A stretch of DNA of 15,866 nucleotides from Candidatus Micrarchaeia archaeon (GCA_041500405.1 JBGQMB010000022.1:1-15866), one strand, 5' to 3'. Positions 4,461-15,468 are shown, counted from the first letter of the stretch. The notes: generated by a model from the letters alone, not told the origin. Numbers and translations are program-made.

Positions 4461-5483
4461 CTAGCCGCCGGGCTGGTATCTCAGGTCATTTTGGACGTAT
4501 TTGATGCAGCTGTCGCGCGCCTCGTCGTTAATGAGCTTCCTGCATATGGACATGTTCCTGGTGACAAGGCCCAGGCACTGCAGCCTGTACTGCTCGTCAG
4601 ATATATGGTTGCATGCGTCCTCGTCGTCGTTGGAAATCCCGTATCCCTGGATGCACAGGTCTATCTTCGTTTCCTTGCTCTCAATGGCGCAGCTGAGATC
4701 GCACTCCATGTTTTGGCATTCATGCCAGTCATTGAGTATTTCTGCGCGGCAGATGTATGTGTCAAGTATGCGCATGCGCCCGCTGCAGGCGGAAATGTTG
4801 CCTGTCATTTCTGCGACATCTATAAGGCAGTTCTCCTCAATCCACATGGTGTCGTTGAAGTATCCCCTCAAGCCTTTGCAGACATTGGGATCGTTTTCAA
4901 CAACTGCAAGGTCTCGGATGCAATCATAAAGGAGGGATGCGTTGGGCTCTGATCTTGAAACGTACTTTCGCTGCGGAATGAACGCCGAACAGTTTCGCGC
5001 GACCGCGTCAGCTATCGCCGGAGGCGCGTCATTGGCGTTGTAAATCGTGATGTTGGTCTTTGCCATTATTATTCCCAAGGAACCCCTTATCGCGACAACC
5101 TGTATAGTATAGTTCCCTGCGGCAAAACCATGATACTGCTGGATTCCCATTTCAGTGACTGCGGCCGGGGGCGGCTGCGCGGTGAAATTCTCGTTGACAG
5201 GGACAACAACGCTTCCGTCTAAGCTGACAAGCCTGAAGCCGTAAACGGTCCCGTTCGGCAGGCCCCGCTGTACAGGATAGAACCACTGCTGGGACTCAAC
5301 CAAGGTAATGTTCCTGTTGTTGGTATCAACAACATAAACAGTGACATACGGGCGGATGGATTCAGAGAATGTGAGATTGTATGCCGCCGGCGGGGCCTGA
5401 AACGCGTCAAGGATGCCGCAGCATCCTAAAGCGAGTGCTAACAGGACAATTGAAACCGCAACCAGCGGGCTTTGCAAAGCCAT
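4461..5483 (-). CDS. Membrane-anchored or secreted protein with beta-rich N-domain and C-terminal Cys-rich helical repeats
   Basis: Signal/lipobox-like LLALALGCC, N-glycosylation sequons and about five C....(A)....D...C..I repeats. Start reassigned to ATG 5483 because a TTTTAAA box sits at 5506-5512 and the ATG at 5543 is box C' of the sRNA. Confidence 0.75.
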   Translation of the reverse strand: MALQSPLVAVSIVLLALALGCCGILDAFQAPPAAYNLTFSESIRPYVTVYVVDTNNRNITLVESQQWFYPVQRGLPNGTVYGFRLVSLDGSVVVPVNENFTAQPPPAAVTEMGIQQYHGFAAGNYTIQVVAIRGSLGIIMAKTNITIYNANDAPPAIADAVARNCSAFIPQRKYVSRSEPNASLLYDCIRDLAVVENDPNVCKGLRGYFNDTMWIEENCLIDVAEMTGNISACSGRMRILDTYICRAEILNDWHECQNMECDLSCAIESKETKIDLCIQGYGISNDDEDACNHISDEQYRLQCLGLVTRNMSICRKLINDEARDSCIKYVQNDLRYQPGG

Positions 5484-5516
5484 AATCCGATTTTTGGGCA
5501 TTCTGTTTAAAACTGC

Positions 5517-5574
5517 TGCCTCAGACCGCACGTCACTCATCATGAATCAGAGATCACCTTTGTCATCATGGGCA
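5517..5574 (-). ncRNA. Box C/D 2'-O-methylation guide sRNA (double guide)
   Basis: Minus strand reads tgcc-c-ATGATGA-caaaggtgatct-CTGA-ttc-ATGATGA-gtgacgtgcggt-CTGA-ggca. This gives perfect boxes C, D', C' and D, two 12-nt guides and a 4-bp terminal stem. Both guides are complementary to conserved 16S rRNA segments. Confidence 0.95.
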
Positions 5575-5596
5575 AGGATAATGTTTGGGCGAACAA

Positions 5597-5603
5597 TATA
5601 TAA
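5597..5603 (-). promoter_or_regulatory. TATA box of the C/D sRNA
   Basis: TTATATA located 23-29 nt upstream of the sRNA 5' stem, matching archaeal TATA-to-TSS spacing. Confidence 0.7.
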
Positions 5604-5708
5604 GCATAAATGCGCAGCTTTCTGCTTTCTTCTGAACCCAAGGGCTCAGAAGTAGCTTCTTTTGGGGTGAAGCAAAAGTAGTTTTCTTTCCGCAGGAGCT
5701 TTCTTTTT

Positions 5709-15048: not shown

Positions 15049-15417
15049 TCACTCACCTTTCTTCTCGGGCTTAGGCAACCTTTTGCTTATGCTTGAGAGA
15101 AGGTCGTTTCCTGACCCGGCCTCTACGACTGCTATTGATGAGCATCCGACCTTGATTCCGGAAGCCTCGCCGAGCTCCTTTTTCGTGTTCACGTGGCCGA
15201 AGGAAATCCCCTTCTCCGCGCAGAGCTTTGGCAGGTGCATCACGACCTCGGGCGGCGTCACGTCCTGTGCGATGACAACAACCTTGGCGATGCCCCTTTC
15301 GATGGCTTTCGTTACCTCGTTCACGCCCCTCCTGACCTTTCCGGTGCCGGAGGCTACTTTCACTAACTCGAGCAAATCCTTTTTCACTTCCTCTGGTGTT
15401 TCATATTTTTCTGCCAT
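15049..15417 (-). CDS. rpl7ae: 50S ribosomal protein L7Ae (also core protein of box C/D and H/ACA sRNPs)
   Basis: GKVRRGVNEVTKAIERGIAKVVVIAQDVTPPEVVMHLPKLCAEKGI...KKELGEASGI. ATG 15417 follows the GAAGGTGG RBS. Confidence 0.98.
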   Translation of the reverse strand: MAEKYETPEEVKKDLLELVKVASGTGKVRRGVNEVTKAIERGIAKVVVIAQDVTPPEVVMHLPKLCAEKGISFGHVNTKKELGEASGIKVGCSSIAVVEAGSGNDLLSSISKRLPKPEKKGE

Positions 15418-15468
15418 TTCATCCACCTTCCTTCATAGGAATGAGTGGATAAGGGATGTTGGGAAACG

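Follow-up and report, generated by a model that had tools for sequence, protein, structure and literature searches.

A dual-guide C/D box sRNA of Micrarchaeota with a conserved guide predicted to direct methylation of C1533 in the anti-Shine-Dalgarno sequence of 16S rRNA

The minus strand of positions 5521-5569 probably encodes a genuine dual-guide archaeal C/D box sRNA of the Micrarchaeota (DPANN), the D' guide of which is predicted to direct methylation of C1533 in 16S rRNA (E. coli numbering). These coordinates, like all those given here without a contig, refer to the window, by which we mean the whole 15,866-nucleotide stretch of DNA that was analysed. Read from 5569 down to 5521, the minus strand presents in order AUGAUGA, CAAAGGUGAUCU, CUGA, UUC, AUGAUGA, GUGACGUGCGGU and CUGA, a layout made up of full consensus C, D', C' and D boxes, two 12-nt spacers and a 3-nt linker. 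The D' guide corresponds to AGATCACCTTTG on the plus strand at 5551-5562 and to CAAAGGUGAUCU in the minus-strand reading. The elements of the locus, together with the L7Ae gene found in the same window, are as follows.

5596..5603, minus strand: TATA-like box TTATATAT, starting 34 nt upstream of the C box
5571..5574, minus strand: 5' half of the terminal stem, UGCC, pairing with GGCA at 5517-5520; the stem is the sole element in the centroid fold
5563..5569, minus strand: C box AUGAUGA, from the sequence and from sub-threshold Rfam C/D matches
5551..5562, minus strand: D' guide CAAAGGUGAUCU, positions 1-9 of which pair with 16S A1529-U1537; predicted 2'-O-methylation of C1533
5547..5550, minus strand: D' box CUGA, from the sequence
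5544..5546, minus strand: D'/C' linker UUC (3 nt), from the sequence
5537..5543, minus strand: C' box AUGAUGA, the first AUG of which is the nominal start of the ORF at 4461-5543
5525..5536, minus strand: D guide GUGACGUGCGGU, with 10 of 12 pairs to 16S A1398-A1409 and C1402 at N+5
5521..5524, minus strand: D box CUGA, from the sequence
5517..5520, minus strand: 3' half of the terminal stem, GGCA, from the centroid fold
15049..15426, minus strand: L7Ae gene (PF01248, 88.3 bits at 15100-15375), about 9.5 kb from the sRNA gene

Searched at the Rfam gathering thresholds, the sRNA locus returned no match, and it thus lies below the threshold of every curated C/D family. When the region 5480-5620 was scanned by E-value, 29 of the 30 matches fell on the minus strand at about 5519-5573 and were to C/D families; the best of these sub-threshold matches were sR2 (28.2 bits, threshold 42) and sR1 (28.0 bits, E = 8.4e-6, threshold 45). 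Except for the 4-bp terminal stem UGCC/GGCA, the RNA is predicted to be unstructured, with a minimum free energy of -13.8 compared to a mean of -17.2 for shuffled sequences (z = +1.21). The locus resembles the archaeal C/D sRNAs described by Dennis 2015 (PMC4644070) in its box consensus, its 12-nt spacers, its use of the N+5 rule, the L7Ae/Nop5/fibrillarin machinery on which it would rely and the chaperone idea taken up below. All three core proteins are encoded in the genome: fibrillarin (PF01269, 266.4 bits), Nop5 (PF01798, 145.5 bits) and L7Ae (PF01248, 88.3 bits). A strict C/D scan of the same genome (916 kb in 60 contigs, 86% complete) yielded five sRNAs; a looser scan added none, and the reversed-genome control gave 0. 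The sRNA is probably transcribed from a TATA-type promoter of its own: 22 of 33 homologues have an A/T hexamer of this type that starts 24-42 nt ahead of the C box, in most cases at 28-34 nt, and the TATA block is kept in the sister genome G001. Of ten sequencing runs recorded as containing this DNA, none is listed as an RNA run.

Two further observations concern the anatomy of the homologues. In genome G006 (L071, G006:C7) the sRNA directly follows a tRNA-like 3' end (GGTTCGAATCC...) and is without a TATA-like box, an arrangement which suggests that it may there be co-transcribed with the tRNA. Many homologues (e.g. L065, L066, L082, L084 and L134) carry an insert of 9-37 nt between the D' and C' boxes, several of these inserts appearing stem-loop-like by eye (e.g. 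GGC-UUCG-GCC); a linker of only 3 nt is found in the RNA of the present genome and in genus g5.

The sequence-only reading had proposed that the D' guide pairs with the 3' end of 16S rRNA through eight Watson-Crick pairs and one G-U pair, with C1533 at the N+5 position. Alignment to the genome's own 16S gene, present in a single copy on the minus strand of G000:C9:2828-4321 and ending in ...GCGGAUAGAUCACCUCCAAAAAC (tail AGAUCACCUCCA), confirmed the complementarity: the guide forms nine contiguous Watson-Crick pairs with AGAUCACCU (A1529-U1537), counted from the base adjoining the D' box. The G-U pair fell away and an A-U pair stands in its place, since the whole lineage has A at 1529. The fifth pair, a G:C at the C of GAUC, places the predicted site at C1533 as had been put forward, the E. 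coli numbering having been checked against the alignment ruler of Dennis 2015 (supplement 3) and the fragment numbering of Seistrup 2017. Guide positions 10-12 (A, A and C) face C, C and A and are unpaired; a G at position 10 would pair with C1538. Through its D' guide, the sRNA has the at least 9 bp, with the N+5 position paired, by which a guide is recognised. Taken by itself, this match is suggestive and weak as evidence: within the 7,481 nt of the genome's own rRNAs and tRNAs, at least nine anchored pairs were obtained with 612 of 20,000 shuffled guides and with 839 of 20,000 random 12-mers, that is, in about 3-4% of cases by chance.

The comparison with related genomes carries more weight, and it is conservation across genomes that raises the pairing above chance. 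BLAST of the locus against 40 relatives found the sRNA in the same genus, in the same family and in other families. When 401 genomes of the phylum were scanned with the pattern TGATGA-N3-6-GTGATCY-CTGA, 36 contained it, compared to 0 of 401 for the reversed pattern used as a control; G216 and G061, both flagged as unpublished, were counted among the 401 as non-matches only, and the genomes compared are relatives of one another, such that the counts are non-independent. The pattern was present in 12 of 16 genomes of family f1, 6 of 9 of f15, both genomes of f7, 5 of 76 of f9 and 2 of 30 of f6, and in this guide register in 0 of 94 and 1 of 83 genomes of the two largest families sampled, f13 and f14. 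Absence of fibrillarin was considered as the reason for the f13 and f14 gaps and rejected, as the protein was found in 390 of the 401 genomes and in 91/94 and 81/83 members, respectively, of these two families.

In the parsed homologues the D' guide core xxxAGGUGAUCU is kept while the D guide varies. Homologous sRNAs conserving the D guide and losing the D' guide had been named as the outcome that would speak against an anti-Shine-Dalgarno (anti-SD) guide, and the reverse was found, the D' guide being the more conserved of the two. Thirty homologues were fully parsed, 21 against their own 16S and 9 against a class consensus 16S. The run of contiguous pairs from position 1 was 10 in nine of them, 9 in fourteen, 8 in one, 7 in four, 6 in one and 0 in one, so that 23 of 30 have nine or more contiguous pairs with the 16S tail; five of the homologues with shorter runs form 10-11 of 12 pairs with a single A.C mismatch. 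The tail itself reads AGAUCACCUC in 44 of 44 16S genes recovered from relatives (29 + 15), and because the target is invariant, compensatory change is unavailable as proof for the D' guide.

The same guide reaches beyond the phylum. A scan of one genome per species with the pattern TGATGA-N3-5-AGGTGATCY-CTGA returned 87 stretches, 80 of which were analysed. Among these matches listed, 42 of 48 archaeal and 0 of 32 bacterial ones were complete C/D RNAs; all 32 bacterial matches lacked the second half, and their number is close to a chance estimate of about 26. Outside the Micrarchaeota, complete C/D copies with the same guide were found in at least three Bathyarchaeia, one Heimdallarchaeota, one Promethearchaeati, two Njordarchaeota, two Undinarchaeota and one Woesearchaeota. 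In a fourth Bathyarchaeia record and in both Desulfurococcales records among the matches listed, the guide adjoins CUGA and no complete C/D parse was obtained. Judged by this distribution, the anti-SD-directed guide, with its predicted methylation, is a real and conserved feature.

The footprint of the D' guide was next set against the Shine-Dalgarno (SD) motif that the genome uses. AAGGUG elements had been noted in the window as ribosome-binding sites that would fit a variant 16S tail, GAUCACCUU (CACCUU). The sites are real, and the motif derived genome-wide is AGGUG(A); the variant tail had to be abandoned, as the genome's own 16S and the 16S of 44/44 relatives read AGAUCACCUC. The motif was derived from 799 crude long ORFs, 773 upstream windows and two controls. 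AGGTG occurred 47 times upstream compared to 4 and 7 times in the controls and GGTGA 36 times compared to 5 and 4; GGAGG was not enriched in the upstream windows (20 vs 14 and 19). The distance from GGTG to the start codon peaked at 5-7 nt. AAGGTG (35) was found more often upstream than GAGGTG (15), in agreement with an A-rich background (A 0.32, G 0.22) and with no gain for G, and AAGGUG sites pair with CACCU through AGGUG, the extra A being background that forms no pair. The working anti-SD is UCACCU (1532-1537), and the CC that follows it is unused. Given the SD motif AGGUG(A), the footprint of the guide is that of the functional anti-SD: its nine pairs cover UCACCU exactly, with C1533 inside, and mRNAs and D' guide alike cease pairing at U1537. 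A mature 16S 3' end near U1537 is one possibility that might account for this shared limit.

Some incidental features of these sequences were noted in the course of the comparison. The 16S genes of 44/44 relatives read AUAGAUCA, with A at 1529, as compared to CUGGAUCA in the seven archaea aligned by Dennis 2015. The hexamer most enriched within the 18 nt upstream of the first start codons of long ORFs was TTTAAA (27 vs 1), which suggests that many transcripts have short leaders or none, or that starts were mis-set. GATC words are scarce in G000, where AGATCACC occurs 5 times compared to about 28 expected and GATC is found in 7 of the 773 upstream windows, a hint that GATC is avoided, possibly in connection with restriction-modification.

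The second guide of the sRNA had been assigned to the base of h44, so that one RNA would clamp both flanks of the 3' minor domain. In the present genome, the D guide forms 10 of 12 pairs with 16S A1398-A1409, with C1402 at N+5, a U opposite C1403 (N+6) and a G opposite A1409. An alternative site in 23S rRNA, ACCGUACGUUGG, is matched about as well in this genome (8 Watson-Crick and 3 G-U pairs), and in G092 this type of D guide pairs with the 23S site at 12/12 positions; family f7, however, has the same type of D guide and a 23S rRNA without that site. Across the phylum, 28 of 30 homologues have a D guide that is a near-complement of 16S 1398-1409, and the other two, from genus g4 (G005 and G009), have an A1408-type guide instead. 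All 28 h44-type guides contain at least one internal mismatch, in many cases at N+5 or N+6: a U faces C1403 in the D guide type of the present genome and in families f5, f7 and f9, an A faces C1402 itself in eight type-b homologues (six of f15, plus G285 and G323), and an A or U faces C1400 in genus g5 and others. The two genomes G003 and G007, with U1404 in their 16S, have an A in the guide where it faces this base, as does G020 for its U1400; this covariation is weak, since in G239 that guide A is present although the C it faces is unchanged. Looking at the homologues as a group, we conclude that the h44 base would be the ancestral address of the D guide, while its ability to methylate appears doubtful. 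Of the proposed clamp, then, the address on h44 holds up as near-complementarity in 28 homologues, and what tells against it is the internal mismatch in every one of them and the rival site in 23S rRNA.

Nearly all of the D guide mismatches in these 28 homologues arise where a C in the target meets an A or U in the guide, and a fully complementary D guide would be very G-rich (GACGGGCGGU); a possible reading is that the mismatches tune duplex stability in mesophiles. The decoding-centre cytosines are themselves changed in some Micrarchaeota 16S genes, C1404U occurring in G003, G007 and G220 (loci L033, L037 and L100) and C1400U in G020 and G254 (L034 and L095).

The closest known system is sR13 of Nanoarchaeum equitans. 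In the accessible part of Seistrup 2017 (NAR 45:2007, PMC5389701), sR13 is described as a dual guide addressing 16S 1531-1540 (the anti-SD) and 1405-1415 (the h44 base and decoding site); it guides formation of Am1534, and both sR13 methylations were seen by MALDI-MS and RiboMeth-seq. The sequence in supplement 1 of Dennis 2015 (PMC4644070) has the A1408 guide as D' and the anti-SD guide as D. The sRNA reported here is likewise a DPANN dual-guide C/D sRNA with an anti-SD guide, its other guide being a putative, near-complementary one to the h44 base, and it differs from sR13 in several respects. Its register is shifted by one, with C1533 in place of A1534 as the target; the slots are swapped, the anti-SD guide being D' here and D in N. 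equitans; its partner guide addresses the C1402 region with mismatches rather than A1408; and its host has kept RsmA/Dim1, which N. equitans is without. The sRNA of genus g4 (G005 and G009), with its A1408 partner, has the same two targets as sR13. Cm1402 is recorded in N. equitans with no guide assigned to it in the available text of the same paper (PMC5389701).

The nucleotide predicted here to be methylated has been measured as such in Ignicoccus hospitalis, where, in the part of Seistrup 2017 that is accessible (PMC5389701), Cm1533 is placed in the anti-Shine-Dalgarno sequence and attributed to 'a presently unknown sRNA'. The last 16S block of supplement 3 of Dennis 2015 (E. coli 1513-1542, seven species) bears no sRNA label, with the proviso that the text copy may have lost labels. 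Relevant to the Ignicoccus modification are the two Desulfurococcales records among the matches listed, in which a GGGAGGUGAUCU guide adjoins CUGA with no complete C/D parse. An I. hospitalis sRNA, IHOsR305 (Dennis 2015, supplement 1, row 323), contains GGGAGGTGATCA, which is complementary to that organism's own 16S tail; IHOsR305 might be the guide for Cm1533, although its boxes are degenerate.

The idea that the two guides of one sRNA act as rRNA folding chaperones was put forward by Dennis 2015 (PMC4644070). In the accessible sections of Seistrup 2017 (NAR 45:2007, PMC5389701), sR13 is proposed to span h44 and h45, to time their folding and to substitute for the missing checkpoint exerted by RsmA/Dim1; RsmA/KsgA/Dim1 is described there as acting on A1518/A1519 in the h45 loop and as gating the entry of 30S subunits into translation. 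The clamping, chaperone and masking roles offered by the sequence-only reading restate what is in print, for sR13, in that part of the paper. The protein enzyme addresses the same 3' minor domain as the sRNA, differs from it in methylating bases, and coexists with it here. RsmA/Dim1 is encoded in the present genome (PF00398, 154.6 bits) and matched in 38 of 38 sRNA-bearing relatives, with more than 125 bits in 34 of the 38. A role of the sRNA as a substitute for missing RsmA/Dim1 was rejected for this lineage on account of the presence of the enzyme; since both occur in the same genomes, the sRNA supplements the enzyme and does not take its place. In the accessible literature searched, subscription-only work lying outside its scope, only Seistrup 2017 was found to link a C/D sRNA to the anti-SD, and no publication was found to cover both 'Micrarchaeota' and 'box sRNA'; the accessible passages of Lui 2018 and Tomkuviene 2017 include none on 'Shine' or '3 end'. 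What is new here is a candidate guide for C1533, its occurrence in the Micrarchaeota lineage and its coexistence with RsmA/Dim1.

Could the complementarity to the 16S tail be fortuitous, the D' guide being an orphan or decaying and merely SD-like? The 3-4% of shuffled or random guides that form an anchored 9-bp match and the unpaired state of positions 10-12 are what such an account can draw on. It is nonetheless extremely improbable, as no fewer than 12 families of the phylum, and archaea of other phyla besides, have kept the guide core, the control with the reversed pattern gave 0/401, 32 of 32 bacterial matches among those listed lack the second C/D half, and the free guide positions 8 and 9 are complementary to the target in most homologues. 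We regard it as very unlikely, too, that the D' guide serves another target in 23S rRNA, a tRNA or an mRNA, or that it is the ribosome-binding site of the downstream ORF. Candidates for another target exist in tRNA-Cys (nine Watson-Crick pairs and one G-U pair, with two mismatches) and in an 11-nt match at G000:C3:9666, but the former is broken at guide positions 7 and 10 and the latter is antisense to a coding frame, and no 23S site was found for this guide. A better-matched target in 23S rRNA or a tRNA had been foreseen as the finding that would displace the 16S tail, and none turned up in the genome's own 23S, 5S and 38 tRNAs. Genome-wide, the 9-mer occurs three times, namely in the antisense of the sRNA gene itself, in the 16S tail and on the antisense strand of an epimerase-like coding frame. 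The case for a ribosome-binding site is that the ORF at 4461-5543 (minus strand, 360 aa) has the AUG within the C' box as its nominal start, 11 nt after GGUG. This spacing falls outside the 5-7 nt optimum of the genome, however, and in the sister genome G001, where the downstream DNA differs, the same AUG opens a frame of only 18 aa; on these two grounds the D' guide was rejected as the ribosome-binding site of this ORF. The AUG of the C' box is thus not a conserved start codon, and because it opens only 18 codons in the sister genome, the true start of the ORF probably lies further downstream, e.g. at MPKNRIMALQ..., which would give a signal- or membrane-like N-terminus.

A reading that overlaps with the preferred one, and that seems unlikely as the principal account, would make an assembly checkpoint or anti-SD mask the main selected role of the sRNA, with methylation secondary, or absent at the D guide. 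The 5' strand of h44 and the anti-SD tail would be held at the same time, such that folding of h44/h45 is delayed and docking of mRNA on immature 30S subunits is blocked. Consistent with this, combinations of an anti-SD guide with a guide to the h44 base recur in separate DPANN lineages, the two guides occupying different slots. In the Micrarchaeota, D' is the anti-SD guide and D is of the C1402 type in 28 of 30 homologues and of the A1408 type in 2 of 30; among the matches listed, the Woesearchaeota RNA has a C1402-type D' and an anti-SD D guide, and the two Undinarchaeota records have an A1408-type D' and an anti-SD D guide, which is the layout of N. equitans sR13. That all 28 h44 guides are internally mismatched, those of the eight type-b homologues at C1402 itself, that the guide footprint equals the functional anti-SD, and that the hypothesis is in print for sR13 in the accessible part of Seistrup 2017, all speak in its favor. 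Against it, the genome encodes RsmA/Dim1 (154.6 bits, and above 125 bits in 34 of 38 relatives), the protein checkpoint for which sR13 was proposed to substitute, the anti-SD guides of Bathyarchaeia and Asgard archaea among the matches listed have other partners, and a 23S site pairs about as well with the D guide of the present genome.

The preferred reading, a C/D box sRNA that guides methylation of C1533, can be cast as the following sequence of events, in which expression of the RNA, methylation of C1533 and any timing or chaperone effect are all inferred. The sRNA would assemble with L7Ae, Nop5 and fibrillarin into an sRNP, and its D' guide would bind the single-stranded 16S tail at A1529-U1537, thereby placing fibrillarin on C1533 for 2'-O-methylation inside the UCACCU anti-SD. 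The D guide may address the 5' strand of the h44 base at A1398-A1409 with a built-in mismatch that would permit binding without efficient methylation. With both guides engaged, the sRNP would span h44 and h45 and cover the anti-SD. The selected benefit might then lie either in the methyl group, through stability of the tail or strength of the SD:anti-SD duplex, or in occupancy, through timing of h44/h45 and by keeping immature 30S subunits off mRNA. The coupling of anti-SD and h44 guides recurs in four DPANN lineages in different slots, which argues that the combination itself would have been selected. The boldest extension of these observations is an RNA-based gatekeeper of the 30S subunit across the DPANN, in which a perfect SD-mimic guide on UCACCU and a deliberately mismatched, non-methylating h44 guide would work beside RsmA/Dim1; we rate it as improbable. 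Were it true, nascent 30S subunits would be kept from docking onto mRNA until release, and the arrangement would have arisen anew or been reshuffled in Micrarchaeota, Woesearchaeota, Undinarchaeota and Nanoarchaeum.

With the sRNA described here, Cm1533, which was measured in Ignicoccus but had no known guide, would gain its first candidate guide family. The sRNA also indicates that anti-SD guide RNAs are not an oddity of the hyperthermophilic Nanoarchaeum: several other archaeal phyla have them, as do sediment Micrarchaeota in which C/D sRNAs number only about five. The coexistence with RsmA/Dim1 weakens the published rationale of replacement for such sRNAs, and the system offers a testable case in which ribose methylation and sRNP occupancy of the anti-SD can be weighed for their effect on translation initiation or 30S maturation.

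One more sRNA of the same genome touches on this region of the ribosome. A second C/D sRNA, which lies outside the window on the plus strand of G000:C21:76-123, has a D guide, GAUGACUUGACU, that forms 11 of 12 pairs with 16S CGUCAAGUCAUC and has at N+5 A1408, whose methylation is guided by sR13 in N. equitans, so that three of the ten guides of this genome are aimed at the 16S 3' minor domain. The 11-nt D' guide of the same RNA finds its best match in the T-arms of tRNAs (GGGUUCAACUC).
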